Shown: positions 2,532 to 21,517 of the stretch, one piece after another
Position numbering within the stretch: the stretch's first letter is position 1
Layout: each line of letters starts with the position of its first letter
Assembly: GCA_041653535.1 (NCBI GenBank)
Contig: JBAZFH010000002.1
Coordinates: forward strand, 80,160-144,159
DNA length: 64,000 nt
Source: Patescibacteria group bacterium
GTDB lineage: Bacteria > Patescibacteriota > Patescibacteriia > JACRDY01
Reading direction: 5' to 3'
The notes under the pieces: generated by a model
Told to the model about the DNA's origin: nothing
The model's database searches: none
What the model saw: the letters and a program-made list of their open reading frames with translations, nothing else
Made by a program: the position numbers and the translations under genes

Positions 2532-3008
2532 TTAATTGCTAGTTCGTTTTTTTATATCGAACTGCTTTAGACAATAGCCCGCGGCGCCGACCACGATCAA
2601 GATGTCGGCGATATTGAACACCGGCCAGAAATTAAAATTGATATAATCAATCACTCCCCCGTAAGCCAGCCGGTCGATCAGGTTGGATAGCGCGCCAAGG
2701 ATGATAATAGTCAAAAAGATAGCTGCAGAAACTTTTTTATTTTGGTATTCTTTGATAGTTATGTAGACGAGAAATAAAATAACCACGCCGGTGATGGCCG
2801 AAATAATTTTTTGACTATCGCTGCCAAAAAGGTCGAGACTAAAAGCCATTCTTTCGTTTTGCCAAAACTGTAAGGTGAATATTTTAAAATCCCGAATCAC
2901 TTCGGGATTTTTTAGCAAATAAAATTTTATTAATCGGTCAAAGGCAAATAGAATGAAAATGACTAGGTTTAAAACGGTAATTCGCAGCGTTTTCATGGCT
3001 GATTTCAA
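2532..3008 (-). CDS. lspA: lipoprotein signal peptidase (signal peptidase II)
   Basis: 4-TM protein with the GALSNLIDRL and FNIADILIV motifs characteristic of LspA. Confidence 0.85.
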   Translation of the reverse strand: MKSAMKTLRITVLNLVIFILFAFDRLIKFYLLKNPEVIRDFKIFTLQFWQNERMAFSLDLFGSDSQKIISAITGVVILFLVYITIKEYQNKKVSAAIFLTIIILGALSNLIDRLAYGGVIDYINFNFWPVFNIADILIVVGAAGYCLKQFDIKKRTSN

Positions 3009-3367
3009 GACACTTTAGTTAGGCGATTTTTGCATGATATACATGCGGAAGAAGACGGACGGGCAAGCAGCCTTTTTTCATCAATCGGTTTGCCGCAGTA
3101 TTTGCAGATACCGTAAGTGCCATCATCGATATGCTTTAACGCTTTTTCAATATCGTGTAAGCTGGCCTGCAAGCTTTCTTCGATCGGAAGGTTATCGCTG
3201 TATTCCGCAACTTCAGCGGCATTATCATCTTCTTTGTCGCCGAATTCGGGAAATTTAGAATCAGTGGCGTCTTCATTACCGCCGGTAAAGACCGATAATT
3301 CCTTTTCTATTTTTTCTTTGCGTTCCAAAAGGTCGTTTTTTATTTTTTCTAAAGTTTTCTTGTTCAT
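3005..3367 (-). CDS. DksA/TraR-family C4 zinc-finger protein
   Basis: C-terminal CKYCGKPI...RLLARPSSSACISC four-Cys motif; acidic N-terminus; 4-nt overlap with lspA. Confidence 0.75.
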   Translation of the reverse strand: MNKKTLEKIKNDLLERKEKIEKELSVFTGGNEDATDSKFPEFGDKEDDNAAEVAEYSDNLPIEESLQASLHDIEKALKHIDDGTYGICKYCGKPIDEKRLLARPSSSACISCKNRLTKVS

Positions 3368-3799
3368 ATAAAGATTTGTTTTGTTTACCTCATTATAGCC
3401 TAAACAGATACTAAATAGCCAGTGTTCGGCTGGATAGTAGGCGTAATTATCTCAAAACAGCAGCTTTTGTCAATATTGGTTAAAATTTAGACAAAACAAA
3501 AAGGCGCAAGCTATAACCCAAATTTGTATTAATACATGGTTGCCGCGCCTTATGCGCTCGGGAAACACTTTATGGTCGTCCGTCACTTATTGGCAACATT
3601 GGTTACCCGCAAGTGGTGGACGACTCATAAATAGACTTTTTGCCCGAACAATGATGATTTTTCAAAACGTTTTTTGCCCCTGAAAACGTTACCGATTCAC
3701 CGGATCTTGGTAAATAGTGGATTTAGCACTTCTACCATTTTGCTTTTTGTTTTTTGTTGGGTAAGGGAGCTTCTTACCGGTTTAAATAAGATCGAGTAA

Positions 3800-4015
3800 A
3801 TTGGTGCATAGATAACGGAAGTTATCTACACATGTATTATACCATATATTTTAAACCACATCAATTTACGCAAGTGTTGTTTTTTGTTTAAGTTTAGATG
3901 AAAAAAAATGTGGATATTTACGTATTTTTTATTTTCTGTTCTTTTTTACTTTAAATTTTAATCAAGATGTTAACAGGATATCCACAAATAATGAAAAAAT
4001 GTGGATAAAGATTGA
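3800..4015. promoter_or_regulatory. cluster of DnaA-box-like 9-mers in a 640-bp AT-rich intergenic region (candidate oriC)
   Basis: tgtggataa (perfect, rc TTATCCACA) at 4003-4011; atatccaca at 3981-3989; tgtggatat at 3909-3916; ttatctaca at 3816-3824; AT-rich tract 4020-4045. Confidence 0.4.
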
Positions 4016-4044
4016 TTTAAAAATTTATTTAATTTTAAATAAAA

Positions 4045-5505
4045 CTATTTTAGACAGCCAGATATACCATAATCGGTCATTTTGAATGCCGAAATACTAA
4101 AAACTTCCCTATATCTAGCCAAAAAATTATTAGCCATGGTTTCTTGGAAGTTAAAAAACATTTGTGGATTAGCAATCTTCTGGCAAAAAGAGGTTAAATT
4201 AATGTTTTTTTCGCCGTTTATTAGCTGTTTAGTGGCGTCGAGCGATGTTGAGAGAATCAAGACGTCATCAATCTGCCCAAAAATAATTTTTAGTTTTGGC
4301 GCCTCTAGGTATTTTAGTTCGTATTTTCCGATTATTTCCGTTTTGGCGTCAAATCTTTTGGGATTAGCTACTAACTCGGTGTATATTGATTTATCCGGTA
4401 GCGACCTTTTTACTTTTTCGGGATACTGGTGGGCGAGGATGTTTTGTAGAATCCTATTAACGGTTTCCAGCGAGTTTTTGTCTTTGTTTTTTATGATAAA
4501 AGTATAAAACAGCTTGTTATCTTCTTTGGTAATAATGATTTGTGTTTGATTGTCCAAATATTTTTCTATTTCCGGAAAAGAAAACCGAAAAGTTTGTTCA
4601 TATGCTTGCCAGGTGCTGAATAGGTCTAAAAATTCTTTTGGTGAAAATTTTTGTAGCTGAACGGAAAAAAGACGGGAAAAATTCAAAAAATTTTCAGCGG
4701 CAATAGAAAAAGTTGTACTTGGCGGCAATTTTTTGGTGATTAGGTTGGCGCCTTTACCAAAATCGATACTTGATTTAATGTTAAAGTTAAAATTTTTATC
4801 TGCCGATATGTAAAAAGCTTTTATGTCGTTGTTTTTGAGGTAGTTTTGTAAAAGGGAAGAAAATATGGGAAAAGAAAGGTTTTTTTGTAATATTTCAGGG
4901 CGTAAAAAAATTTTTAACAAACCACGATCGTAAGCAGATAGCCAGCGATTGTTTTTAACGATCGACTGTTGTCGCTTGATTATGGTCGGGGCAGGAGCAG
5001 AGGTGTCCAGAGGGGCGATCAAATAGCGGCTGCCGGCGAATATTATTGTTTTTTGTCCGGAAATAATATTTTTTATTTCTTTTGGTTTTAGTATTTTGAT
5101 AACAAAATACCAATTATCGTCTTTGTTTAAATAAAGTCCGATTTCCCGGTCAATGTGGTTTTTGACAACAGAGATGTCAAAAGGCGGTAGTCCAGACATT
5201 CTTTCATCAATATCATCAAAAAATATACTGAAAAATTTTTCCGCCGGCGTACCGCTTTGTTCCAGGGGTAAATAGTTAAGATGTATATATATTTGCGCGT
5301 CAGCGGGGACAAATTGCGCTAGGTTGTCACCATTACGATTGCGACTGATAGCTAAAAATAAAATCCCGCTGAATATTATAATGATGGCGAGTAAAAATAA
5401 GATTGTTGCCAGGTGGCGAGGGCGGATGAGTTTGAGTTTTGCGAGTAGACGCTGGATCATGGTTTGATTATAACAAATAACAGGGTAATAGAGTAACGGG
5501 GGCAA
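4045..5505 (-). CDS. membrane-anchored hypothetical protein (N-terminal TM helix; start may be the internal Met at 5460)
   Basis: 486-aa ORF with a single N-terminal hydrophobic helix; no recognised domain. Confidence 0.5.
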   Translation of the reverse strand: MPPLLYYPVICYNQTMIQRLLAKLKLIRPRHLATILFLLAIIIIFSGILFLAISRNRNGDNLAQFVPADAQIYIHLNYLPLEQSGTPAEKFFSIFFDDIDERMSGLPPFDISVVKNHIDREIGLYLNKDDNWYFVIKILKPKEIKNIISGQKTIIFAGSRYLIAPLDTSAPAPTIIKRQQSIVKNNRWLSAYDRGLLKIFLRPEILQKNLSFPIFSSLLQNYLKNNDIKAFYISADKNFNFNIKSSIDFGKGANLITKKLPPSTTFSIAAENFLNFSRLFSVQLQKFSPKEFLDLFSTWQAYEQTFRFSFPEIEKYLDNQTQIIITKEDNKLFYTFIIKNKDKNSLETVNRILQNILAHQYPEKVKRSLPDKSIYTELVANPKRFDAKTEIIGKYELKYLEAPKLKIIFGQIDDVLILSTSLDATKQLINGEKNINLTSFCQKIANPQMFFNFQETMANNFLARYREVFSISAFKMTDYGISGCLK

Positions 5506-5684
5506 CTATAGAAATATAAAAGACACATAAATTGAGGCTCAGTATTGACAAAAAAATGTGTTTATATTAAGCTGCGACGATGCCTTTTGAAAATTGAATA
5601 TAGAGTAGAAAATAATGTTTTGTTAAAGGTTCGGGAAAGTGAACAGAGCCAATTTTTGGCTCGCTAAACCAAGGGAGACTTGAG

Positions 5685-6485
5685 ATGAAGATGAAAATGG
5701 CGTTCTTTTTTTGTGTGGTTATTTTCGTCGTGTCGTTGATCGGTTGCACGGTCGCTCCTAAAGCCTGCGAGGAAGCGGTGCTTGTCAAACAGCCGTGGAT
5801 TTTCGGCTCCGGTGGTATCGACCCGACGCCCGTTAAAACCGGTCTGAAATACGTGGCGCCGAGCACTCACGCGGTGATCGTTTCGACGTCGCCGCAGCAG
5901 TTTGCCATTCATTTTGACGATTTGATGTCAAGTGATGGCGTTCCGCTGGATTTCGATAGCGTGATCCGGCTCCAGGTTCTGGATTCGGTTAGTCTGGTCA
6001 AAAACTTCGGCGCCGACTGGTATAAGTTGAACGTCGAGAAGGAATTTATGAATCGAGTTCGGCAGGCCGTGCGTAAGCATGGCATGAACGAGACGGCCAT
6101 CAATACCGTTGCCATCGACGCTATCGACGCGGAGGTGTCGGAGGAGATGACCAAGTATCTAAAAGAGAAGACTGTTCCGGTCGCCCTTATCGGAGTGACG
6201 ATTGGAAAGGCGAATCCTCCCGACGCGATCAAATCGCAACGGATCGCGACTGCTGAGCAACAGCAGCGTATCCTGACCGAACAACAACGGAAGCTGGCGG
6301 AAGACCAACGCAAGCTGGCGGAAAAGTCCCGCGCTGCCGCCGATAACGCTTATCGGGAAGACATGTCGTTGTCTCCTGATCAATTTCTGCGTCTTGAAAG
6401 CATCAAGATGCAGCGTGAAGTTTGTTCCGGCGGCAAATGCACGTTTCTTTATGGCGGCGCATCCGCCGTCTATGACGTGAAATAA
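5685..6485 (+). CDS. SPFH/band-7-like lipoprotein (GC-rich)
   Basis: signal peptide with an LIGC lipobox; SPFH-like core; C-terminal QQQRILTEQQRKLAEDQRKLAE coiled coil; GC content well above surroundings. Confidence 0.55.
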   Translation: MKMKMAFFFCVVIFVVSLIGCTVAPKACEEAVLVKQPWIFGSGGIDPTPVKTGLKYVAPSTHAVIVSTSPQQFAIHFDDLMSSDGVPLDFDSVIRLQVLDSVSLVKNFGADWYKLNVEKEFMNRVRQAVRKHGMNETAINTVAIDAIDAEVSEEMTKYLKEKTVPVALIGVTIGKANPPDAIKSQRIATAEQQQRILTEQQRKLAEDQRKLAEKSRAAADNAYREDMSLSPDQFLRLESIKMQREVCSGGKCTFLYGGASAVYDVK

Positions 6486-6499
6486 TTTTTTTCAGCACC

Positions 6500-6533
6500 A
6501 AAAACCCCGTACAAAGATGTACGGGGTTTTTTA
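6500..6533 (+). terminator. intrinsic terminator
   Basis: aaaaccccgtacaaagatgtacggggtttttt. Confidence 0.65.
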
Positions 6534-6595
6534 TAACCTTTTGCCCTGCGCGGGCGGCGGATACTTTCTGCAAACAGAAAGTATCAAAAGATTTT

Positions 6596-6697
6596 CTGGG
6601 GTGGCATAAGCCCGAGTTTTATAGCACCTTACGGTTCTCTAAACCCGCCTCGTCCGCCGCGGCGGACTTCGGCTCGGGGCAACGCCACCCCAGAACC
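6596..6697. ncRNA. GC-rich structured intergenic element (possible small RNA or repeat)
   Basis: 11-bp closing stem tctggggtggc/gccaccccaga; inner stem cccgag/ctcggg; 16-bp palindrome gtccgccgcggcggac. Confidence 0.3.
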
Positions 6698-6825
6698 CCC
6701 GAGGTTTAGCATTTTATCTTTTTAAAAATAAAGTCAAAAGTATTCCCGTGTAGTCCGCGGTGTTACTGGCGTTTTTCTAAATACTATATACCAGCCCCTA
6801 TATACTCAACCGTGGTTAGAAAACA

Positions 6826-6858
6826 AAAACGTCCCGTTATAAACAGGACGTTTTTTAT
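6826..6858 (-). terminator. bidirectional hairpin terminator downstream of pnp
   Basis: aaaaacgtcccgttataaacaggacgtttttt. Confidence 0.55.
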
Positions 6859-6871
6859 TTAAGGGTAAAGT

Positions 6872-9139
6872 TTAGAATCTTGGTTTGCGAGGACCACCAC
6901 GATGAGGACCGTTGTTACGACCGTGGTTATTGTCACGCTCTCCGCCAGCCGCGCGTGGATCGTCTTTGTAGTTTGGATCCAGTCGTTTTATCGAGAGATT
7001 AATTCTACCTTGATCGTCAATTTCTTTGACAATTACTTTGACCTTGTCGCCGATATTTACCACATCGGTAACTTTTTCAGTCCGACCGGCTGCTAGCTCG
7101 GAAATATGCACTAGACCGTCTTGCTTTGGTAGGATTTCAACAAAGGCGCCAAAGTCCATTATTCGAACAACAGTACCTTCGTAAACTTCGCCGGCTTGGA
7201 CTTCTTTGACGATATTATTGATCCAATCAACGGCTTGTTTTACTTTTTCCTGATCAATACCTGTTACCATCACTAGACCGGTTTGTTCGATGTCGATTTG
7301 TACGCCAGTGGCGTCAATGATTTCATTAATCACCTTGCCGCCAGGTCCGATAACTTCGCGAATCTTATCAACTTTGATATAAAAGGAAACGATACGTGGA
7401 GCATAAGGTGACATTTCTGCTCGTGGAGTCGGAATTACTCGTTCCATGACATCGAGGATTTTTTCGCGACCGGCTTTGGCGCGAGATAAAGCTTGTTCGA
7501 TAATATCTAGATCAAGACCGTCGGTTTTAGTATCCATCTGGACGGCGGTAATACCGTCGCGAGTGCCGGTAACTTTGAAATCCATACCGCCAGCTCCGTC
7601 TTCTAGATCTTGTAGATCGGTCAGTAGTTTATATTTGCCACTGCCATCGCTAGCTAGACCAATAGCCACACCGGCGACGTGCTTTTTGATCGGCACGCCG
7701 GCGTCCATTAGTGCCAGAGACGATCCGCAGGTTGATCCCATAGAGGACGAACCGTTGGAACTCATAACTTCAGAGACTACGCGAATAGTGTAAGGGAAAT
7801 CTTCCTTGGCCGGTAGGACCGGGATCAAGGCTTTTTCCGCTAAAGCGCCGTGACCAATAGCGCGTCGGCCAACAGAGCCCATGCGGCCAGTTTCGCCATA
7901 GCTATATGGAGCATCGTTGTAATGATGCATGTAGCGTTTTTTGCCGTCTTCTTCCATTGAGTCGAGAGTCTGTTCATCTCCAGGTGAACCAAGAGTCACG
8001 GTAGAAAGGATTTGAGTCTCGCCGCGATTGAACAGCGCTGAGCCGTGAGTGCGCGGGAGCAGACCGACCTCGCAAGCCAGCGGGCGGATTTCATCAAGTT
8101 TACGTCCGTCGACACGTTGGTCGTTTTCCAGTATCGCTTTAGTAATTTGCACTTCGATAAATTTATCAAAATCTTTCAGGACCTTTTTACGGTTCTCTTT
8201 GCTCACTTGCTTTTCTAGCAGCATCGCTTCTACCTTTTCTTTTAACTCATCTAGGACGATATGGCGTTCTCTTTTAGTTCCTTTTGGGGTGTTAAAAAGA
8301 TACTGGTCAAGGTTTTGCAAGATAAAGGTGTGGGTCTCAGCTTCGATTTCTTCATAAGCTTTTTCCGCTTCCACGGCTTCTGTCGGAGTTTCTTCTTCGG
8401 GAAATTCAGCTTCGGCTTTTTCTTCGATTACTTCGGTCATTGAGATTTTTTCCTTACCTACCGCGGCGCGAATTTCTTCTATGAATTCAATTAATTTTTT
8501 GCCGTGTTTCATGCCAAAGGCAACGGCGTTATAAAAGTCAGATTCGCTGATTTCGTTGGCCGCGGCTTCAAACATCATTACTTTTTCTTTGGTCATAGAA
8601 AAAGCGATATCGCAAACGGATTTTTCTCTGGCGGTATAAGTCGGGTTGAGTACCCATTCGCCGTTGATTTGTCCGACACGGATACCTGCTAGCGGTCCGT
8701 TCCATGGGATATTGGAAATGTGCAGGGCAATCGACGCGGCGATCATGCCAACGACATCGGGATCGTTTTCACCATCAACGGAAAGCGCGGTGAGTATCAC
8801 TTGGACTTCATTGCGCAACTGTTCCGGAAAAAGCGGGCGCATACCGCGATCGATCATACGACCGGAGAGTACGGCTTCGTCGGTTGGTCTGCCTTCGCGT
8901 TTGATAAAGCGGCTGCCTTTGATTTTGCCGGCAGCGTACATTTTTTCTTCATAATCAACCATGAGCGGGAAGTAATCTATTCCCTCTCGCGGTTCCGGTG
9001 ACATAACGGCCGTAGCCAAAATAACCGTATCTCCGTATTGGACGGTACAGCTGGCATTGGTGTGTAGGGCTAGTTTCCCTACTTCTACTGTGAGTTTTTG
9101 GCCGGCAAACTCTGTAGAGAAGTTTTTCACTTCTGACAT
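6872..9139 (-). CDS. pnp: polynucleotide phosphorylase (polyribonucleotide nucleotidyltransferase)
   Basis: two RNase PH domains, KH and S1 domains; conserved PNPase motifs; position after rpsO. Confidence 0.95.
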   Translation of the reverse strand: MSEVKNFSTEFAGQKLTVEVGKLALHTNASCTVQYGDTVILATAVMSPEPREGIDYFPLMVDYEEKMYAAGKIKGSRFIKREGRPTDEAVLSGRMIDRGMRPLFPEQLRNEVQVILTALSVDGENDPDVVGMIAASIALHISNIPWNGPLAGIRVGQINGEWVLNPTYTAREKSVCDIAFSMTKEKVMMFEAAANEISESDFYNAVAFGMKHGKKLIEFIEEIRAAVGKEKISMTEVIEEKAEAEFPEEETPTEAVEAEKAYEEIEAETHTFILQNLDQYLFNTPKGTKRERHIVLDELKEKVEAMLLEKQVSKENRKKVLKDFDKFIEVQITKAILENDQRVDGRKLDEIRPLACEVGLLPRTHGSALFNRGETQILSTVTLGSPGDEQTLDSMEEDGKKRYMHHYNDAPYSYGETGRMGSVGRRAIGHGALAEKALIPVLPAKEDFPYTIRVVSEVMSSNGSSSMGSTCGSSLALMDAGVPIKKHVAGVAIGLASDGSGKYKLLTDLQDLEDGAGGMDFKVTGTRDGITAVQMDTKTDGLDLDIIEQALSRAKAGREKILDVMERVIPTPRAEMSPYAPRIVSFYIKVDKIREVIGPGGKVINEIIDATGVQIDIEQTGLVMVTGIDQEKVKQAVDWINNIVKEVQAGEVYEGTVVRIMDFGAFVEILPKQDGLVHISELAAGRTEKVTDVVNIGDKVKVIVKEIDDQGRINLSIKRLDPNYKDDPRAAGGERDNNHGRNNGPHRGGPRKPRF

Positions 9140-9239
9140 ATTTAGTTTGTTTAGCCCGGCCGCAGATTATTGTTACGTGGCTGACTACAAAAATAGTCAG
9201 GTCATCTAACAACAATGTTATTGGCCGGATTGTTTAATT

Positions 9240-9306
9240 GGTAGCGGGTAGTGAGTAGCGAGTACAGAGCAGATATTTTTACTCACTACTCGCTACCCAC
9301 TACTCG
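9240..9306 (-). promoter_or_regulatory. pnp 5' leader stem-loop (16-bp imperfect hairpin)
   Basis: ggtagcgggtagtgagtagcgagta ... tactcactactcgctacccactactcg between NYN gene and pnp start. Confidence 0.4.
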
Positions 9307-9312
9307 TTGATA

Positions 9313-9819
9313 TTACCTTTTTCCGATCAAATATTTCCGTGGGTTGTCGTCCAGGTTGATAAAGTCATCAGCCGCTTCAATCAGTTTAGCCGAAGTGGTT
9401 TTGCCGAAAGCGACAACTTCCACCATGCAGCCTTTATTTTCCTGGAGATATTTTACCATCGGGATAAAATCTCCGTCGCCACAGACCAGAATGATCGAAT
9501 CCAGTTTGTCGGCAAGTTTGATAGCGTCAACAGCGATGCCGACATCCCAGTCGGCTTTTTTGACTCCGGAAAAAAATATTTGCAAATCTTTGCTTTTTAC
9601 TTCAAAACCTTGCTTGTCCAGCGCGCCAAAAAATCCAGACTCTTCTTTGCTTTTTGATTCAATGACATAAGCGATAGCACGAATTAATTTGCGTTCGCCA
9701 ATAGCCGTTTTGAGTATTTCTTTGAAATTAACATTGGCGTGATAAAGGTTTTTTGCCGAGTGATACATGTTTTGCGTATCAACCAGCACGCCGACTCTTT
9801 GATCTTTATGTTTTATCAT
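9313..9819 (-). CDS. NYN-domain (LabA/DUF88-like) RNase
   Basis: GVLVDTQNMYHS and CGDGDFIPMV motifs typical of the NYN domain; sits between rpsO and pnp. Confidence 0.75.
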   Translation of the reverse strand: MIKHKDQRVGVLVDTQNMYHSAKNLYHANVNFKEILKTAIGERKLIRAIAYVIESKSKEESGFFGALDKQGFEVKSKDLQIFFSGVKKADWDVGIAVDAIKLADKLDSIILVCGDGDFIPMVKYLQENKGCMVEVVAFGKTTSAKLIEAADDFINLDDNPRKYLIGKR

Positions 9820-9945
9820 AAAACGTGAATTTTAAATTGGTTCTAAGTTATAAATTTTTGAAACTGACTTTGAAAAAAAGACTAGTTAAAAAATGAGCTA
9901 AAAATCAGAAAAGCCCGGAGCCGGGCTTTCCATAAAATATATAGA

Positions 9946-10317
9946 TTAAGGAGCGTCTTCTTTGACCGGCTCAACCGCTTCTTCCAGCTCTTCAACCGGT
10001 AAACCGAGTTCGTCTTCTTCAGCCTTTCTATTTTCCTCGGCGATTTCTTTACTTACTTTGATTTTTAGAGCTTTAACTAACTTTTCCCATTCTTCCAGAT
10101 TTTCCTTCCGTAGATATTTGAGAAGTTTCTTACGTTCGTTTACTTTTTTGATCAAACCGCGCCGAGACGAATAGTCATGTTTATGATCTTTGAGGTGACC
10201 AGTGAGTTCTTTGATTTCTTCGGTCAAGATAGCAATCTGAACCTGCGAAGAACCGGTGTCACTGGCGTGAGTGCGATACTTGGCGATAATTCTGTCCTTT
10301 TTTTGTTTGGTTAGCAT
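9946..10317 (-). CDS. rpsO: 30S ribosomal protein S15 (with C-terminal acidic extension)
   Basis: QVQIAILTEEIKELTGHLKDHKHDYSSRRGL; start set at the internal Met; precedes pnp. Confidence 0.9.
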   Translation of the reverse strand: MLTKQKKDRIIAKYRTHASDTGSSQVQIAILTEEIKELTGHLKDHKHDYSSRRGLIKKVNERKKLLKYLRKENLEEWEKLVKALKIKVSKEIAEENRKAEEDELGLPVEELEEAVEPVKEDAP

Positions 10318-12413: not shown

Positions 12414-13388
12414 ATGTCGAAAACTGGAAACAACCTAATCACCGATTTTCTCGAGTATCTGGAAATCGAGCGTGGACGATCGCAGGCGACTATCCGCAAC
12501 TATGATTTTTATCTGCGGCGTTTTTTTGATTGGGCGATTAAACGACAGAAGAGTTTTGATGTTAAAGATATTGATTCGCAGGCTATCAGACAGTATCGGT
12601 TGTTTCTTAACCGTGCCGTTGATGACAGAGGAAAGCAGCTTAAAAAAAGCACGCAAAATTATCACCTGATTGCTCTGCGGACGTTTCTCAAATTTCTTGC
12701 TAGAAATGATATCAAATCTTTGTCTCCGGAAAAAATCGAGCTGGCCAAACAGTCCGAACGCCAGATCGAATATTTGGAAGGGAGCGATCTTGGTAAATTT
12801 CTCGAAGCGCCGTTGCAAGTTGATGAGCAAAAAATCATCCAGCTGCGCGACAAATCAATGCTGGAAACGTTGTTTGCCACCGGGCTTCGTGTTTCCGAAT
12901 TAGTTAATCTTAGAAAAGATCAGGTGAATCTGAATAAAGACGAATTCACCGTGCGCGGTAAAGGAGATAAGCTGAGAATAGTTTTTCTTTCCAACCAGGC
13001 CAAATATTGGATTAAACAATATTTGGAAAATCGCAAAGATGCTTCGCCGTTTATGTTTGTCAGTCATGACAGGGCGAGGCAGTCCAGGTCTGGTGTTAGC
13101 GGCACCAAAAAAGATATTTTAGAAGAAGTTGAACATCTGACGCCACGGTCGGTGCAGCGGATAATCAAGAAATATGCTCAGATGGCGGGTATTACCAAAA
13201 AAATCACGCCGCACACTTTGCGTCATAGTTTTGCCACTGATTTATTGACTTCCGGCGCTGATATCCGTTCCGTGCAAAGTTTACTCGGACATTCATCGAT
13301 TACTACTACGCAAGTGTACACTCATATTGCCGATCAGCATCTCAAAGAGGTTTATAAAGCGTTTCATGGAAGGAAGATGAAGAAATGA
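12414..13388 (+). CDS. tyrosine site-specific recombinase (XerC/XerD family)
   Basis: core-binding N-domain; C-terminal RHSFATDLL...GHSSITTTQVYTHI with catalytic R-H-R-Y residues. Confidence 0.85.
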   Translation: MSKTGNNLITDFLEYLEIERGRSQATIRNYDFYLRRFFDWAIKRQKSFDVKDIDSQAIRQYRLFLNRAVDDRGKQLKKSTQNYHLIALRTFLKFLARNDIKSLSPEKIELAKQSERQIEYLEGSDLGKFLEAPLQVDEQKIIQLRDKSMLETLFATGLRVSELVNLRKDQVNLNKDEFTVRGKGDKLRIVFLSNQAKYWIKQYLENRKDASPFMFVSHDRARQSRSGVSGTKKDILEEVEHLTPRSVQRIIKKYAQMAGITKKITPHTLRHSFATDLLTSGADIRSVQSLLGHSSITTTQVYTHIADQHLKEVYKAFHGRKMKK

Positions 13389-13733: not shown

Positions 13734-13809
13734 GGTGGCTATAGTGTAATGGTTAGCACTCGACTCTGTGGAAGTCGCGGTTCGGGTTCAAATCCCGATA
13801 GCCACCCCA
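13734..13809 (+). tRNA. tRNA-His(GTG) with G-1 and encoded CCA; attL of the integrated island
   Basis: acceptor gtggcta/tagccac, anticodon loop ctGTGga, T-loop ttcaaat; extra 5' G. Confidence 0.8.
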
Positions 13810-15393
13810 CAAGGCACTCTTCTTTACGGAAGAGTGTTTTGTTTTGGAAATTAAGCCAATTTGGACAGGTTCTAAGGTTTTTATTTCTTCCAACCCAGTT
13901 TTTACAATTTCAAAGGGTTTTTGCAGGTTCAAAGATAATTGACGGTCTTTCAAAATAAAACCAGAGCCTAAAGATATTAAGATAGTCTTTTTAGTATCTA
14001 AGTCGCCGTTTTTAAACCAATGACGCGCATAGCAAGAGAATTCAAAAGTCTTCTCAACGTTCTCCCTCCAGTTGTCAGCTCGGCTTTCATAATTTTTTAA
14101 TTGCTCAGCCATTTTTTCCCTCTCTTGCAAAAGTTTATTTTTCCGTTCAGTATATTCGGCATCATTTATTAGTTCACTTATTCTCATTGAAAGCAGGCTG
14201 TCTAATTTCTTTTCTACATTATCGTAAGCTTTTTGTTGGGTGGCTCGGATTATTTCTCTTTCCTTAATCTCACCATCATTAAGATTGTTGAGCCATTTTA
14301 TAGCCCAGTTTTTAAAATCTTCTGGTATTTGTATTTTTTCTAAATAAGCGTCAACTTGTTTTTCGAGCTCTTTTATCTCGAGGGTTTTTTGGCTACACTT
14401 CGGGCAAACATTTTTCCCCTTGCCACAGCGATAGTAGGTGTAATGGTGGGCGTTGCCGTTTTTTTGTTTCTTGAATTTTTCCTCCGCAGTTATCATAGAG
14501 CCACACTCTCCGCAGCGTATAAGCCCCGTAAACGCAAAATTATGCGTTTTAGGGCGTGACTTACCCTTTCTACCCAGTATCTCTTGTACGCGCCAAAAAT
14601 CATCTTCTGTGATGATTGTTTCATGTGCCCCCTTGTACCACTCGCCCCTATATTGGAATTTTCCAAAATAGAATGGGTCAGCCAAAATTCTATAGATAGT
14701 ACTCTCAGCCATTGGTCTGCCACCCTGTCTTTTAGTTTTAGGAGTTAAATATCCCCATTCATTATTCATCTTGTCTAACACTTGAGCGACAGTATATTTT
14801 TGGGTCAGAATCAACTCGAAAGCCTTTTTAATTAATGGCAACCTTGCGGTATCGGGTAGGAGTTTCTTGTCCCCTTGTTCGGAGAGTTTGTCTGGTAAAT
14901 ACCCTGGCTTAGCTCCAGGCAACCACCCCATTTTTACTTTTTGCATCAGCCCCCTAATTGTATTTCGGCGTAAGTCGATAATAAATTGGTTCGCTACCCC
15001 AAACTCCATATTCATAAGAAGCACATTGTCTCCTGGATAGTAGTCTCTCTCGGGAGTTTTAATGTGTTTAATAATACCTTGCTGCAAAAGCCAATTAATT
15101 CTGCCACCATCTATTGGGTTCCTAGCTAGGCGGTCTAATTTCCAACAGATTATACCCTGCGCCTCTCCGTTTTCTATTCTCGTAATCATCTCATTGAAAA
15201 TTGGGCGCCCTGGGCTTTTAGCCGACATGGATTCTTTGAATATATGTATGCTGTTTAAACTAAACTTTTTCGCCGCCTCCTCACTAGTTGAAAGCTGCGC
15301 GGGAATAGATAAGGCTTGCCTGTCTTCCGCGGCTTCAGACTTTCTAGCATAAACGAAGTACTTTATAGTGTCTAAATTTTCCAAATTAGTCAT
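13753..15393 (-). CDS. large serine recombinase (resolvase/invertase N-domain + recombinase domain + zinc ribbon)
   Basis: N-terminal YARKSEAAEDRQALSIPAQ with catalytic Ser; C-terminal CGECGSM...YYRCGKGKNVCPKC zinc ribbon; 3' end overlaps tRNA-His. Confidence 0.85.
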   Translation of the reverse strand: MTNLENLDTIKYFVYARKSEAAEDRQALSIPAQLSTSEEAAKKFSLNSIHIFKESMSAKSPGRPIFNEMITRIENGEAQGIICWKLDRLARNPIDGGRINWLLQQGIIKHIKTPERDYYPGDNVLLMNMEFGVANQFIIDLRRNTIRGLMQKVKMGWLPGAKPGYLPDKLSEQGDKKLLPDTARLPLIKKAFELILTQKYTVAQVLDKMNNEWGYLTPKTKRQGGRPMAESTIYRILADPFYFGKFQYRGEWYKGAHETIITEDDFWRVQEILGRKGKSRPKTHNFAFTGLIRCGECGSMITAEEKFKKQKNGNAHHYTYYRCGKGKNVCPKCSQKTLEIKELEKQVDAYLEKIQIPEDFKNWAIKWLNNLNDGEIKEREIIRATQQKAYDNVEKKLDSLLSMRISELINDAEYTERKNKLLQEREKMAEQLKNYESRADNWRENVEKTFEFSCYARHWFKNGDLDTKKTILISLGSGFILKDRQLSLNLQKPFEIVKTGLEEIKTLEPVQIGLISKTKHSSVKKSALWGGYRDLNPNRDFHRVEC

Positions 15394-16671: not shown

Positions 16672-16923
16672 TCAGTCAGCATAAACTCTGCTTTTTAACT
16701 CTTTAAGAGTATTGAAATAAATTAGCGGGTCGACGGTTAGTCCATGAGCCCAAAATAATTGTATTAGTTGGTCTAAATACTCGTCTCGTCTTATAAGGAA
16801 TTTTATTTTTTGTGGGTTTTCTTTGTCTGTTGCTTCTACGCAATATCCGAGGCAACCGAGCGTCGCACATAAGGAAAGGTCAGAGGTCTTAAAATAATCA
16901 TTTTCATTTAATTTTTGGGTCAT
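16672..16923 (-). CDS. hypothetical protein
   Basis: 83-aa ORF. Confidence 0.3.
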   Translation of the reverse strand: MTQKLNENDYFKTSDLSLCATLGCLGYCVEATDKENPQKIKFLIRRDEYLDQLIQLFWAHGLTVDPLIYFNTLKELKSRVYAD

Positions 16924-17974: not shown

Positions 17975-19165
17975 ATGGAAAATCCTATTTTTATACCAAA
18001 ATTAATCCAAAACGAAGCTGGCTTTGTAGATAAAATAAAATTGCCAGCTATTTTAATGGACGCTAATATTGTTGCCTTTTCCCCTAAAATATCCGGCAAG
18101 ATAAGAGCGTCTGCAGATAGTTTTATTATCAATCCGGTCACTAATTTTTTTGTTGAAAATTCATTCATAGGCAAAAAAGCATTTAAGAAGTTGCCTACGG
18201 CTCCAGCTAAGCCCTATAGAGTTGAAGAGCTATTAACAAACGAAAAGTTAAGACGAGATGAATTGGTTTGGAAAAATATTGAGTATCAGATTAACAATAA
18301 AGCTAATATAATTATTATCCCTTACATTTATTCTGACAGCATTAATGATTCCAAATTCGGAATAAATTTAAGTATGATTTCTGACGCTTTAAAATTATTA
18401 AAAGTAAATAAAATAAATATCCCAGCGTATGCCATGATTAACATGGGCTCAAGTGTTTTGAATGATTTTACTGGACTAAATAACTTGATAGAAAGATACC
18501 GTGATGATTTTAATGACAAGATAAATGGTTTTTTTATGATGTTTGACGGCTTTGATTGTAGAAAAGCCGTGGATGATTCATTAATGGGTTTAGCCTATTT
18601 AACATTTTATTTGTCCGAGAATAAAAATACCTTCATTTTAAACCTGGGTGATTTTGGGGATGTATTATGTGCTATAGGTGCAAGGGGATATAGTAGCAGT
18701 TTGGGCGGTGGTGAAATATTTAATGTAGAAAAGCTATCCAAGGAAACTAAGAGTCGAGGCAGAAATCATAAAATTTTCTCTTACGTGCCCGAGGTGTTTG
18801 ATTATTTAAATAATGAATCATTAAGAAAAATTGGTTATAAATGTCCCTGCTCTATTTGCGATAATGGAATACCTAATGGCTGGAATAACGCAAAAGCCCA
18901 TTTTCTAAACAGAAAATTGGAGCGGATGGATAATTTAGCCAATTTAAATCGTGACCAGAGAATTGATTTTATTAAATTAAAAATTGAGCAAGCCGTTGAA
19001 CTAATATCTGTATATAATGCAAATTTTGCATTATCTATAAAGACGGATTTTTTGCTAAGATGGAAGAATGTTTTGGAAAAATCACGCCACTGGTCTTATA
19101 GCAAGCGAGAGACTGAAGCGGTGGATTTAGATAAAATAATTGAAGAAGCTAGAAAAAACAAATGA
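17975..19165 (+). CDS. tRNA-guanine transglycosylase (TGT)-like / DpdA-like protein
   Basis: NGFFMMFDGFDCRKAV resembles the TGT GIDMFDCV catalytic-Asp motif; C-terminal YKCPCSICDNG...AKAHF matches the TGT CxCxxC...H zinc site; N-terminal NPIFIPKL resembles TPxFMPV. Confidence 0.5.
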   Translation: MENPIFIPKLIQNEAGFVDKIKLPAILMDANIVAFSPKISGKIRASADSFIINPVTNFFVENSFIGKKAFKKLPTAPAKPYRVEELLTNEKLRRDELVWKNIEYQINNKANIIIIPYIYSDSINDSKFGINLSMISDALKLLKVNKINIPAYAMINMGSSVLNDFTGLNNLIERYRDDFNDKINGFFMMFDGFDCRKAVDDSLMGLAYLTFYLSENKNTFILNLGDFGDVLCAIGARGYSSSLGGGEIFNVEKLSKETKSRGRNHKIFSYVPEVFDYLNNESLRKIGYKCPCSICDNGIPNGWNNAKAHFLNRKLERMDNLANLNRDQRIDFIKLKIEQAVELISVYNANFALSIKTDFLLRWKNVLEKSRHWSYSKRETEAVDLDKIIEEARKNK

Positions 19166-19608
19166 GAATCGTGCCAGATACAAATTTATTAATTCAAGGA
19201 TTGCTTTTTAGAGGCACAGCTAGAAAAATAATCAACTTGGCTTATGAGAAAAAAGTTGATTTTTATGGTAGTGCGAATTCTTTTAATGAAATAAAAAGAG
19301 TAGTCTACTATTCTCGATTTAAAAAATACCTTGAGAATGAAATATTTTCCCCAGAAAAAATAATGATTTCTTTTAAGTCCCTCATCACCGTTGTTTCTAT
19401 AGACTCAAAATATAAAAATTCAAAATTTGTCGCCGATGATGCAGATGACGATGAGTTTATAAGAATAGCTAAGACAGTACAATCAAAATTTATTATTTCA
19501 AGCGATAAGCATTTAAAGAATATAAAAAAAGTCGACGATATAAGAATCGTCGAGCCAGAAATTTTTTTGAAGATATATCCAACTATATCAGGAAAAACAT
19601 TTTTTTAA
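19162..19608 (+). CDS. PIN-domain nuclease (VapC-like)
   Basis: MRIVPDTNLLI start, acidic DDADDDEF and SSDKHL motifs; start overlaps upstream stop (AAATGA). Confidence 0.65.
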   Translation: MRIVPDTNLLIQGLLFRGTARKIINLAYEKKVDFYGSANSFNEIKRVVYYSRFKKYLENEIFSPEKIMISFKSLITVVSIDSKYKNSKFVADDADDDEFIRIAKTVQSKFIISSDKHLKNIKKVDDIRIVEPEIFLKIYPTISGKTFF

Positions 19609-20259
19609 TTGTTGTTTTCCTAAGATAAACTCAGCGGCTAAATTAAACTTATGCCTATTTAAGGGTCGAGTGGCTTTTACTCGACTTATTTTTTTTGTAT
19701 GCTTATCGGGGTCAAATAAAATTAATCCTATATTATGTTTTTTAAGTAGCTCGCGGTCTACTAGATGACCTCTAGCAGCTGGCATGGCTAGGTATGCTTT
19801 ATTAGCAAAAGATTTATATCTATTGGCTTGCACAAATCCCTTTTTCCAATCTTTAAGTTTGGCTTCAATGGCAATGATTTCTTTAGCGATGGGCATCCAA
19901 CCATTTATCTTGAAATAGTATTTGTTATCAACTTTTTTTATAAAGCCATTATTTTCTAGGGTTTTTAAATATTTATATTTTAGAGTTGCCTTTGGAATAT
20001 TTAGATTTTTAGTTAGGCTGTTTAGGTCAACTTTTTTATTAGCGCCTAGCTCTGGCAAGTAATCAAAAATTTTAAAAAATTCCTCATTTTTTATTTTTTT
20101 GTATTGTTTGTTTTTGTTTCTGATGGCGCACTTATCTGGATTGACTCTAAATAGGACTAAATCTGCAACCCCATAACCAACGCCAACCTCCCTTTTGGTT
20201 AAGAAACCTTCCTTAATGAATTTTTCTTCCAAAAGTTTGACAAATTTTTTTTCTGTCAT
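19588..20259 (-). CDS. PD-(D/E)xK-fold nuclease with inserted winged-helix domain
   Basis: GYGVADLVLF ... IAIEAKLKDWKKGFVQANRY (D...ExK) with a wHTH segment between; converges on the PIN gene with ~20-nt overlap. Confidence 0.5.
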   Translation of the reverse strand: MTEKKFVKLLEEKFIKEGFLTKREVGVGYGVADLVLFRVNPDKCAIRNKNKQYKKIKNEEFFKIFDYLPELGANKKVDLNSLTKNLNIPKATLKYKYLKTLENNGFIKKVDNKYYFKINGWMPIAKEIIAIEAKLKDWKKGFVQANRYKSFANKAYLAMPAARGHLVDRELLKKHNIGLILFDPDKHTKKISRVKATRPLNRHKFNLAAEFILGKQQLKKCFS

Positions 20260-20848: not shown

Positions 20849-21247
20849 TTATTTTTTCTTAGCTAGCCAATATCCACCAGCTCCAGCTCCGCCTAGTCCC
20901 AAAACCCAAGCCCAGGTATTATCTGATTTATCAGAAGAATCTTGTTCGGAGTTGATTTTAGCAATTGGTCGCTGATTAACTTCGAGTTTAGGGATTTCAT
21001 ATTCTGGTGCGGGTTCTGTTGTTCCTGTCCCATTAGCTCCGTAAGTGCTTTTTATGGGCTCTTCTGGCTGAGGCAAAGCTTTAGCTTGGTGGCAATGATA
21101 TTCGCCCGTGCCGAGACCCCAAGAGGAGCAATTTGTTCGACAGGTATGACAACCAGAAGCATCGGTTCTGCCAGGATGTGCTTGAGCAATCAGAACAAAG
21201 CTAAAAGAGGCAATAAATAGTGCTATAGATAGGGATACTTTGTACAT
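20849..21247 (-). CDS. secreted YHYH-like small protein with C-terminal hydrophobic anchor
   Basis: signal peptide; HPGRTDASGCH...GEYHCH resembles YHYH-domain proteins; C-terminal GLGGAGAGGYWLAKKK. Confidence 0.4.
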   Translation of the reverse strand: MYKVSLSIALFIASFSFVLIAQAHPGRTDASGCHTCRTNCSSWGLGTGEYHCHQAKALPQPEEPIKSTYGANGTGTTEPAPEYEIPKLEVNQRPIAKINSEQDSSDKSDNTWAWVLGLGGAGAGGYWLAKKK

Positions 21248-21499
21248 ACTTTAATCATATCGGAAAATGGTGATAATTTAAATAGGGCGCTTTTGTTTCA
21301 AGAAAATAAACCCGTAGAGTTTCAATTATCTCAATCAATCCGTTTCTAACTTCCTTTCGCCCGCCACCCCATAAAAAAGCATTTGCCTTTTGGCATAATG
21401 CTTTTTTATTTTGTAAGACTGAGGGGTTTGAACGGTCCGCCAGCTGGCGGATGCCCAGGGCGATGAACCCAGCTGCGGGGCTCTGCAGCTGGGGACGAG

Positions 21500-21517
21500 A
21501 TCCCGATAGCCACCCCA
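21500..21517 (+). repeat. attR: 18-nt direct repeat of the tRNA-His 3' end
   Basis: exact match to 13792-13809. Confidence 0.65.

Follow-up and report, generated by a model that had tools for sequence, protein, structure and literature searches.

A Divergent TGT-Fold Protein with a PIN Nuclease and a Restriction-Type Nuclease: A Candidate Defence Cassette on a tRNA-His Island of a Patescibacteria Group Bacterium

Introduction

What role might a relative of tRNA-guanine transglycosylase (TGT) have on an integrative island, where its gene overlaps a PIN nuclease gene and the gene for a restriction-type nuclease converges on the pair? The locus lies in a 64,000-nucleotide stretch of a Patescibacteria group bacterium (the window; contig JBAZFH010000002.1 of assembly GCA_041653535.1). 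TGT-fold enzymes exchange guanine for 7-deazaguanines in tRNA and, in the Dpd system, in DNA; in type IV CBASS, a TGT-fold enzyme reportedly handles a protein-linked deazaguanine. An initial annotation of the window, made from the sequence alone, had placed the first gene among the TGT-like proteins and proposed a link between the island and queuosine-family tRNA. Our analysis supports the TGT fold and the gene arrangement, revises the active-site assignments, and suggests a different reason for the association with tRNA-His.

Gene Order and Coupling

The cassette comprises three genes, with coordinates as originally called:

17975..19165, + strand: gene A, the cassette's first gene, encoding a divergent TGT-fold protein (TIM barrel plus zinc knuckle) of 396 aa
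19162..19608, + strand: gene B, encoding a PIN_3 nuclease of 148 aa (PF13470, TIGR00305, invariant acidic residues)
19588..20259, - strand: gene C, encoding a PD-(D/E)xK nuclease of 223 aa, convergent to B

The stop codon of A and the start codon of B share the sequence ATGA at 19162-19165, as had been claimed, and the convergent 3′ ends of B and C overlap by 21 nt. This order (A→B→←C) is intact in 20/20 distinct cassettes, so the pairing of A with a PIN gene, for which a check among homologs had been proposed, does recur. The A/B junction is conserved across the cassettes as a 4-8-nt overlap or a 5-nt gap, and the convergent 3′ overlap of B and C spans 15-38 nt at the 12 loci measured. Scans for promoters and terminators gave a signal no higher than that of shuffled sequence.

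The tRNA-His Island

The cassette lies about 4 kb from a tRNA-His gene, within an island of approximately 7.7 kb delimited by the following features:

13735..13809, + strand: tRNA-His(GUG) (ARAGORN)
13753..15393, - strand: large serine recombinase (Resolvase, Recombinase, and Zn_ribbon_recom domains)
13792-13809, + strand: attL, the last 18 nt of tRNA-His(GUG), exact repeat ATCCCGATAGCCACCCCA
21485..21517, + strand: attR, a displaced tRNA-His 3′-end remnant at the right end of the island (18 nt exact at 21500-21517)

The 3′ end of the recombinase gene extends into the tRNA-His gene, and GC content is 0.29-0.33 within the island, returning to 0.44 at attR. The exact 18-nt att repeat, the recombinase, and the drop in GC together bear out the initial placement of an island in tRNA-His(GUG). 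The recombinase is 58% identical to that of a second tRNA-His island bearing the same cassette.

The proposed connection with queuosine tRNA is incidental. Among 14 other loci scanned, tRNA-His lies near the cassette in only one (L004, with a related integrase at tRNA-His), and the remaining 13 are without it. An interpretation of the insertion as queuosine biology was rejected; tRNA-His is the att site of a serine-recombinase island.

Fold and Family of Gene A

Gene A adopts the TGT fold. Its top structural match is the bacterial tRNA-guanine transglycosylase (Tgt; PDB 3unt/2pwu), at about 9-12% identity, and the protein has the TIM barrel and TGT-type architecture of the TGT superfamily. In HHalign, the A family aligned with six bacterial Tgt sequences (Prob 75%, E=2.6e-5), with residue equivalences that are solid only for residues 100-300.

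Sequence-profile membership of the TGT family, by contrast, did not stand. Gene A has no match to the PF01702/Tgt/DpdA models at E≤1 (Pfam) or E≤10 (NCBIfam), and 10 distant relatives of A likewise gave no TGT profile match in these two databases; sequence-family searches with A in Pfam, NCBIfam, PADLOC, and PHROGs yielded nothing meaningful, as did searches of PDB sequences with the single A sequence and with an 18-sequence profile. The lack of a significant TGT-family hit had been named at the outset as grounds for refutation; the claim that A is TGT-like survives because of the fold evidence. A polar signature (D/N53-P-x-T, Q105, P116-Y117, E/D247, Y270, and CxCxxC...H) is conserved in 142 relatives, kinase fusions included, which argues for a working pocket and against a decayed paralog. 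A is best read as a previously unrecognised, very divergent branch of the TGT fold for which Pfam, NCBIfam, and PADLOC hold no model.

Zinc Site and Active-Site Positions

Four segments of A bear on its relationship with TGT:

18131..18142, + strand: N53-P54-V55-T56 (placed by strand order only)
18539..18559, + strand: MFDGFDC, residues 189-195 (string present, not conserved)
18713..18715, + strand: Glu247, opposite the TGT nucleophile Asp (HHalign register)
18842..18901, + strand: zinc motif, C290-x-C292-x-x-C295-x13-H309 (conservation and HHalign)

The C-terminal CxCxxC...H site was correctly recognised at the outset: among 103 family members, C290 is kept in 97, C292 in 85, C295 in 98, and H309 in 101, and the CxCxxC motif aligns with C302/C304/C307 of E. 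coli Tgt (HHalign). The spacing from the third Cys to the His differs, at 13 residues in A as compared with about 25 in Tgt and 22 in DpdA (PMC10164549); H309 is probably a zinc ligand.

The set of catalytic Asp residues expected of a TGT is not all kept in A. TGT and DpdA have three invariant Asp residues, which in DpdA form the triad Asp95/Asp130/Asp256 (PMC10164549). Where Tgt (3unt/2pwu) has its Asp nucleophile (E. coli D264, Z. mobilis D280; D256 in DpdA), the window's protein has Glu247; this position is E in 76/103 members and D in 13/103, and is therefore acidic but not the invariant Asp of TGT. At the position of the base-recognition Asp (Z. mobilis D156/DpdA D130), no conserved Asp was found in the 103 members of the A family, and the TGT 'FDEC' segment falls opposite a gap preceding the invariant P116-Y117 of A (HHalign).

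The third position is approached through the D-P-x-T consensus of the family at residues 53-56, where the third barrel strand ends. Residue 53 is D in 125/142 relatives (about 88%) and N in 11/142, and the window's protein has N. By strand order only, position 53 may correspond to the general acid/base Asp of TGT (E. coli D89/DpdA D95); HHalign of the N-terminal 110 residues of A against TGT returned no alignment. With Asn at this position, the window's protein may have lost some catalytic power, or may function unlike most of its relatives.

The segment MFDGFDC, which had been taken as a catalytic hallmark resembling the TGT motif GIDMFDCV, was rejected as such. Its Asp and Cys positions already vary among the 18 closest homologs (across the family, D191 is present in 39/103, D194 in 51/103, and C195 in 8/103), and the profile alignment puts the segment opposite the GGLAVGE strand of TGT. 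A second candidate equivalence, between GYSSSLGGGE of A and GYAVGGLAVGE of TGT, is contradicted by HHalign, which pairs GYSSSLGGGE with GIDMFDCV. The acid pair conserved in the family (D53 and E/D247) is no less compatible with a true enzyme than with a pure sensor.

The Two Nucleases

B was annotated from the start as a PIN nuclease, and this is upheld by matches to PF13470 (PIN_3; 3.3e-13, 50.9 bits, cut-off 27; Pfam) and to TIGR00305 (4.8e-16, 59.1 bits, cut-off 29.15; NCBIfam), and by acidic residues D6, E43, D93, D95-97, and D115, which are invariant in 12 distinct homologs.

C is likewise the PD-(D/E)xK/wHTH nuclease, convergent on the A/B pair, that it was proposed to be. It has the core restriction-endonuclease fold with a D...(D/E)xK motif (D33...E132-x-K134, with Q144), and the catalytic residues are invariant in homologs. 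A winged helix is inserted in the nuclease domain at about residues 59-118, between the D strand and the ExK strand, and its recognition helix (L93-K94-Y95) is nearly invariant across homologs. No Pfam model hits C above threshold; Mrr_cat (PF04471) falls below it (E=0.09, 13.3 bits, cut-off 21), over residues 1-61 only, and in PADLOC nothing matched C beyond Csa3/CARF proteins, weakly and through the winged helix. C differs from the Mrr/NucS/XisH-like wHTH PD-(D/E)xK nucleases in carrying the winged helix inside the nuclease domain and in being always paired with a TGT-like gene.

Distribution, Neighbours, and Variants

Only 18 close homologs of A were found among 5.8 billion proteins, scattered over several phyla; a scan of GTDB genomes with the close clade gave four loci only. 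The distribution as a whole is patchy and takes in Patescibacteria, Elusimicrobia, Ignavibacteriales, Paludibacteraceae, Bacillota, Actinomycetota, and one haloarchaeon. The trio usually adjoins R-M, GmrSD, Mrr, Bil, or BREX-like genes; taken together, genes neighbouring the cassettes encode type I and type IIG restriction-modification (R-M) systems, GmrSD, Mrr, Schlafen/AlbA, Bil, and BREX-like proteins, and integrases; some cassettes are on plasmids, but most contexts are chromosomal defence islands. No match to A or C was found in 50,697 phage records (tblastn), and no relative in IMG/VR scanned with alignments of both, so the cassette is not evidently phage-borne.

Gene A lies outside any queA/tgt/yajC-type setting, consistent with the initial view that this is not a housekeeping tgt context, and no housekeeping tgt was found in the window or in loci L001-L014 (tblastn with E. 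coli Tgt as query). The reported lack of linked que/preQ0 genes held for the window's island and for every one of about 25 contexts examined.

In distant relatives, A and C are kept and the PIN gene is replaced by a Ser/Thr kinase, either fused to A or separate. In Priestia and Sutcliffiella, one protein joins a Pkinase to the TGT-like domain, and a C homolog again follows in convergent orientation with an overlap; in Natribaculum, the operon runs in the order C, kinase, TGT-like, phosphoesterase; and on a Gordonia plasmid, a relative of A is found without a detectable C. The constant partner of the TGT-like protein in the wider family is C, not PIN.

PADLOC 2023 (PADLOC-DB 2.0.0) returned no match for A or B, and no account of the trio turned up in PADLOC 2023, in the Pfam and NCBIfam collections, or in the literature that could be searched, in keeping with the initial failure to recognise the arrangement; coverage of the literature was incomplete, and an earlier description is possible.

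A Candidate Sensor with Exchangeable Effectors

On the principle of guilt by association, the cassette is probably a conflict or defence system. The best explanation overall, which we would place a little short of an even chance, is that the three genes are one functional unit, a mobile and previously undescribed candidate defence cassette. Its constant core would consist of the zinc-containing TGT-fold protein A and the compact DNA nuclease C, with an exchangeable third enzyme made in fixed proportion with A; this partner would be the translationally coupled PIN nuclease here and a Ser/Thr kinase in other lineages. The base-flipping, purine-binding TGT pocket of A may recognise a guanine-derived base, either in nucleic acid or as a free base arising during infection, and may cut the glycosidic bond. 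Recognition by A would control its partners: PIN would cleave RNA or single-stranded nucleic acid, C would cleave DNA, and the invader or the infected cell would be shut down.

The division into a sensor and its effectors is proposed tentatively. That PIN and kinase take each other's place at one position is what would be expected if interchangeable effectors were attached to an unchanging sensing core; C, however, is always present and looks catalytically active, so a modification-restriction logic of A and C, with PIN or kinase as an accessory, explains the pairing equally well. A more specific proposal, in which the A branch is an immune sensor or enzyme that flips out and recognises or excises a modified purine and thereby licenses PIN/kinase and C, is rather doubtful. 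The modified purine, located in invader DNA or tRNA, could for example be a 7-deazaguanine of a phage. If this proposal were true, the cassette would represent a new mechanistic class of defence in bacteria and archaea, independent of queuosine-precursor biosynthesis. If functional at all, it would be an additional immune system, perhaps one that extends the TGT fold to a new chemistry or mode of sensing, and would offer a rare way into the study of defence in Patescibacteria, about whose immune repertoire little is known.

Alternative Explanations and Known Systems

A minimal Dpd-like R-M system, in which A swaps a base in host DNA as DpdA does, C cuts unmarked DNA, and PIN or kinase has an accessory or back-up function, seems unlikely, although several features of the cassette agree with it. 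A and C are the constant pair in all variants, R-M systems commonly have modification and nuclease genes that converge and overlap, and the potentially toxic nuclease never occurs without the TGT-like gene. Phage DpdA enzymes are reported to function without DpdB, which also counts in favour of such a system, whereas the generally small biosynthetic capacity of Patescibacteria, to which many hosts of the cassette belong, counts against it. That DpdB is dispensable (PMC12839542) weighs on the favourable side. The Dpd system (DpdA, PDB 7ui4) further includes DpdB (a ParB-like ATPase), DpdC, and DpdD-K, and depends on linked or genomic preQ0 synthesis; the cassette contexts examined are without these Dpd proteins, and neither preQ0/que genes, a DpdB-like ParB ATPase, nor DpdC is linked to the cassette in about 25 of them. 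A does not preserve the trio of Asp residues that is invariant in TGT and DpdA (PMC10164549). The near invariance of the recognition helix of C is unusual for sequence-specific restriction enzymes, which usually diversify there, and the tight translational coupling joins A to PIN (or, in relatives, A is coupled to a kinase), not A to C.

Type IV CBASS offers a second comparison. Its TGT-fold protein Cap10 (PDB 9ntn) is encoded beside a CD-NTase and the QueC-like Cap9, neither of which adjoins the cassette in any context, and Cap10 retains the TGT Asp residues (D73, D122, and D248) that the A family does not.

We consider it distinctly unlikely that the cassette acts by base excision, as a type IV-like restriction system in which A is a glycosylase that removes a modified purine (e.g., 7-deazaguanine) from invader DNA and PIN and/or C cut at the resulting site. 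TGT chemistry does start with cleavage of the glycosidic bond by an acidic nucleophile, and Glu247 stands at that position; such a system would need no base-biosynthesis genes, matching their absence, and the cassette often adjoins the type IV enzymes GmrSD and Mrr. There is also a precedent in other folds, since the anti-phage glycosylases Dag1 and Dag2 act against 7-deazaguanine DNA (bioRxiv 10.1101/2025.10.29.685425). No TGT-fold enzyme, however, is known to be a defence glycosylase; no counterpart of the TGT base-recognition Asp is detectable in A, so deazaguanine specificity is a guess, and the replacement of PIN by a kinase is left unexplained.

There is a slim chance that the cassette is a toxin-antitoxin or addiction module by which mobile elements are stabilised, with PIN (and perhaps C) as the toxin and A as a large, enzyme-like antitoxin. 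B does resemble VapC-type toxins of the PIN_3 group: it is a full-length PIN_3 protein with the acidic quartet, belongs to TIGR00305 (described as a putative PIN-family toxin of toxin-antitoxin systems), and is encoded by the second gene of a bicistron, whose 4-nt overlap is the classic antitoxin-toxin layout; the cassette is moreover found on an integrative island and on plasmids. The antitoxins of PIN proteins are normally small DNA-binding proteins, as in VapBC, where they are encoded upstream, whereas all 20 cassettes have in this place a TGT-fold A (396 aa in the window), a TIM barrel with a conserved pocket. VapBC-type modules also have no third conserved nuclease gene, which the cassette always bears. 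The kinase-fused variants contain A and C but no PIN, and plasmids account for fewer of the contexts than chromosomal defence islands.

A housekeeping-type modification of tRNA-His or other GUN tRNAs by A as a TGT paralog, with the nucleases nearby by chance, is suggested by the best structural match of A and by the tRNA-His gene 4 kb away, but it is very improbable, given the low-GC integrative island, the rarity and patchiness of close homologs, the locking of A to two nucleases, the incomplete set of catalytic Asp residues, and the 13 of 14 other loci that are without tRNA-His.

The kinase variants of the cassette relate it to PD-T4-6, Stk2, and MAD6, which are defence kinases acting as single proteins. 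The kinase domain of the relatives, whether fused to or beside the TGT-like domain, matches the PD-T4-6/Stk2/MAD6 HMMs with E values of about 1e-61 to 1e-71, and these profiles cover the kinase part only, leaving the TGT-like domain uncovered. The window's cassette has PIN where the kinase stands, a swap that would amount to a natural experiment on effector exchange over a constant sensing core.

Gene Layout and Island

A three-gene cassette is carried by an integrative island of ~7.7 kb. It encodes a protein with the fold of tRNA-guanine transglycosylases (TGT), here called A, a PIN nuclease (B), and a convergent PD-(D/E)xK/winged-helix nuclease (C). The three ORFs lie exactly where the initial annotation placed them, and its description of the junctions held: the sequence ATGA is common to the stop of A and the start of B, and C converges on B with a 21-nt overlap of the 3′ ends.

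Features of the island and its flank

12414-13388, + strand, Xer-type tyrosine recombinase gene, directly upstream of the tRNA-Arg/tRNA-His pair and outside the island
13753-15393, large serine recombinase, abutting tRNA-His
16672-16923, - strand, DUF5659 protein (Pfam 9.3e-07), among the small island ORFs between recombinase and cassette
17975-19165, + strand, A, 396 aa
19162-19608, + strand, B, 148 aa
19588-20259, - strand, C, 223 aa
20358-20660, - strand, 100 aa, without family match; hydrophobic helix at the N-terminus, tail acidic and coiled
20849-21247, - strand, 132 aa, without family match; the N-terminus is signal-like, a stretch rich in Cys and His reads HPGRTDASGCHTCRTNCSSWG...YHCH, and a hydrophobic anchor lies at the C-terminus

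The proposed insertion of the island in tRNA-His(GUG) was borne out by an exact repeat, the serine recombinase and a drop in GC content (0.29-0.33 within the island vs 0.40-0.46 outside). The island is bounded by the exact 18-nt direct repeat ATCCCGATAGCCACCCCA, one copy forming the tRNA 3′ end (13792-13809) and the second lying at 21500-21517, where a degenerate 33-nt copy of the tRNA 3′ half (79%) is retained (21485-21517). Terminator-like hairpins with T-runs occur just beyond the stop of each convergent gene (19532-19553, - strand; 19663-19687, + strand), each inside the opposite gene, so that the two transcripts would overlap by ~150 nt; such sites are no more numerous than expected from shuffled sequence.

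A second tRNA-His island with the cassette is present on a patescibacterial contig (L004; ENA ERZ27249449 k141_36253, 2980-10309). Its gene order is that of the window (rpsO, Xer-type recombinase, tRNA-Arg and tRNA-His, serine recombinase, cassette). The serine recombinases of the two islands share 58% identity; the small genes carried between recombinase and cassette show no relationship. The shared layout, related recombinase, and differing cargo suggest a family of tRNA-His islands sharing the cassette; tRNA-His was absent near the cassette in the other 13 loci scanned.

Protein A Is a Divergent TGT-Fold Protein

No sequence method (Pfam, NCBIfam, PADLOC, PHROGs, or PDB sequences, the last searched also with an 18-sequence profile) assigned A to a family. 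Its TGT fold is supported by agreement among three methods: an AF2 model (pLDDT 82.7, pTM 0.82; confidence low at residues 245-279 only), Foldseek, whose top three matches to the model are TGTs, and HHalign of the family alignment (103 sequences) against six bacterial Tgt proteins (Prob 75%, E=2.6e-5, residues 100-300).

HHalign register of A (first) and E. coli Tgt (second)

AYAMINMGS, ALFGIIQGS
NGFFMMFDGFDC, DGYAVGGLAVGE
TFILNLG, RYLMGVG
SLGGGEIF, GIDMFDCV
CPCSIC, CDCYTC

The segment MFDGFDC, originally proposed as the catalytic motif, aligns with TGT GGLAVGE rather than GIDMFDCV, and its residues are weakly conserved; 65 of 103 relatives have an acidic residue, Glu or Asp, at position 195 within it, consistent with the Glu in the GGLAVGE strand of TGT. 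In this register the nucleophile position is Glu247 (E in 76/103 members, D in 13/103). The predicted zinc site stands, with cysteines in register with Tgt; all but two of the 103 members have H309. Judged only from the order of the strands, a D-P-x-T motif (53-56) may be the counterpart of the general acid/base "TDSGG" strand of TGT; HHalign gave no N-terminal alignment to back this mapping. Of 142 relatives, 125 have Asp at position 53; the window protein and its closest homolog have Asn.

In TGT and in DpdA, the TGT paralog of the Dpd 7-deazaguanine DNA modification system, three aspartates are invariant and the zinc motif is CxCx2Cx22H (PMC10164549). The A family, in contrast, has an altered acid set and its His 13 residues on, not 22; with the lack of a sequence-family match, this places A outside the curated TGT and DpdA families, on a branch of the TGT fold that is both new and very divergent.

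The Partner Nucleases

The PIN assignment of B was upheld (PF13470 (PIN_3), 3.3e-13; TIGR00305, 4.8e-16). Residues D6, N8, E43, D93, D95-97, and D115 do not vary among 12 distinct homologs, and B should be an active nuclease. Profile searches gave no family above threshold for C; a 37-sequence alignment nonetheless agrees with the proposed PD-(D/E)xK nuclease, with invariant G-x-A-D33-L ... E132-A-K134 ... Q144-A-N-R-Y. Its winged helix is an insertion within the nuclease core, and L93-K94-Y95 in the recognition helix is close to invariant.

Recurrence and Exchange of the Third Gene

Close homologs of A are rare (18 among 5.8 billion proteins in a word-indexed search); an exhaustive profile search yielded 241 cluster representatives, 93 at E≤1e-10. 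Loci were collected via A, via C, and by collection scans, a distinct cassette being defined by a unique A sequence. The pairing of A with a PIN gene recurs: all 20 distinct PIN-clade cassettes have the A→B→←C layout, with a 4-8-nt overlap or 5-nt gap at the A/B junction and a convergent B/C overlap of 15-38 nt (12 loci measured). Neighbors include GmrSD-type proteins, type I and IIG restriction-modification (R-M) systems, Mrr, Schlafen/AlbA proteins, DNA methylases, a Bil ubiquitin-like system, and integrases.

Elsewhere in the family a Ser/Thr kinase replaces PIN. In 21 representatives (~670-700 aa) it is fused N-terminally to the TGT-like domain. On a Priestia megaterium plasmid the gene after the fusion converges on it and overlaps it, and its 223-aa product is 34% identical to C; Sutcliffiella has this arrangement too, adjoining BREX-like genes. 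The haloarchaeal Natribaculum breve plasmid CP095393.1 (4710-8177 of the locus) carries an operon of C-like, separate Ser/Thr kinase, TGT-like, and calcineurin-like metallophosphoesterase genes, with a type IIG Eco57I/MmeI-like R-M gene immediately upstream; the record used carries no annotation. Matches of the family's kinases to the defence kinases PD-T4-6 and MAD6 are confined to the kinase part. Since C is kept with both PIN and kinase variants, the near-constant pair is the TGT-like protein and C; the third enzyme can be exchanged between PIN and kinase and keeps a fixed stoichiometry to the TGT-like module. The sole relative lacking a detectable C-like nuclease is on Gordonia bronchialis pGBRO01 (5938-9147 of the locus), where a 402-aa TGT-like protein is convergent with two others, an APH-family phosphotransferase and a protein of 279 aa whose match to cytidylyltransferases is faint; these may be yet another partner set.

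Proposed Function

TGT-fold proteins are already known in defence, from Dpd, from Cap10 of type IV CBASS, and from the BRC systems that have been proposed (PMC10164549; bioRxiv 10.1101/2025.04.06.647259; PMC12839542). Neither the trio nor the A branch matched a model in PADLOC 2.0.0 (2023 release, incomplete), Pfam, or NCBIfam, and the searchable literature, itself of incomplete coverage, yielded no published description of either.

The analysis shows the folds, the conservation of catalytic residues in B and C and of a polar signature in A, the strict linkage of the genes, and their setting in defence islands and mobile elements. We favor a defence system in which A would recognize a guanine-derived base, possibly cleaving at that base, and upon recognition would control its partner enzymes; this reading is preferred mainly because the PIN/kinase swap on a constant core resembles interchangeable effectors. 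The leading alternative is that A and C form a minimal modification-restriction pair of the Dpd kind; as the initial annotation had noted for que/preQ0 genes, no linked que/preQ0, DpdB/C, CD-NTase, or QueC-like genes occur in the examined cassette contexts. Base-excision, type IV-like, restriction is an unlikely account of the same genes, a toxin-antitoxin module somewhat less likely still, and a housekeeping tRNA role for A very unlikely.

Contigs with Other Host Labels and Apparently Decayed Copies

Three contigs with the cassette (L020, L021, and L023) bear the GTDB title 'uncultured Gammaproteobacteria bacterium' as MAGs. Their cassette proteins share 46-56% identity with the patescibacterial one, indicating either wide movement of the cassette or unreliable MAG labels. 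At another locus (L027, 177-4393) a fragment of the kinase and a TGT-like ORF stand apart, with an IS21-type element upstream of them, and on a Bacillus toyonensis plasmid the kinase and TGT-like parts are annotated as separate short proteins (P0291 and P0295); both look like decayed kinase-fusion copies.
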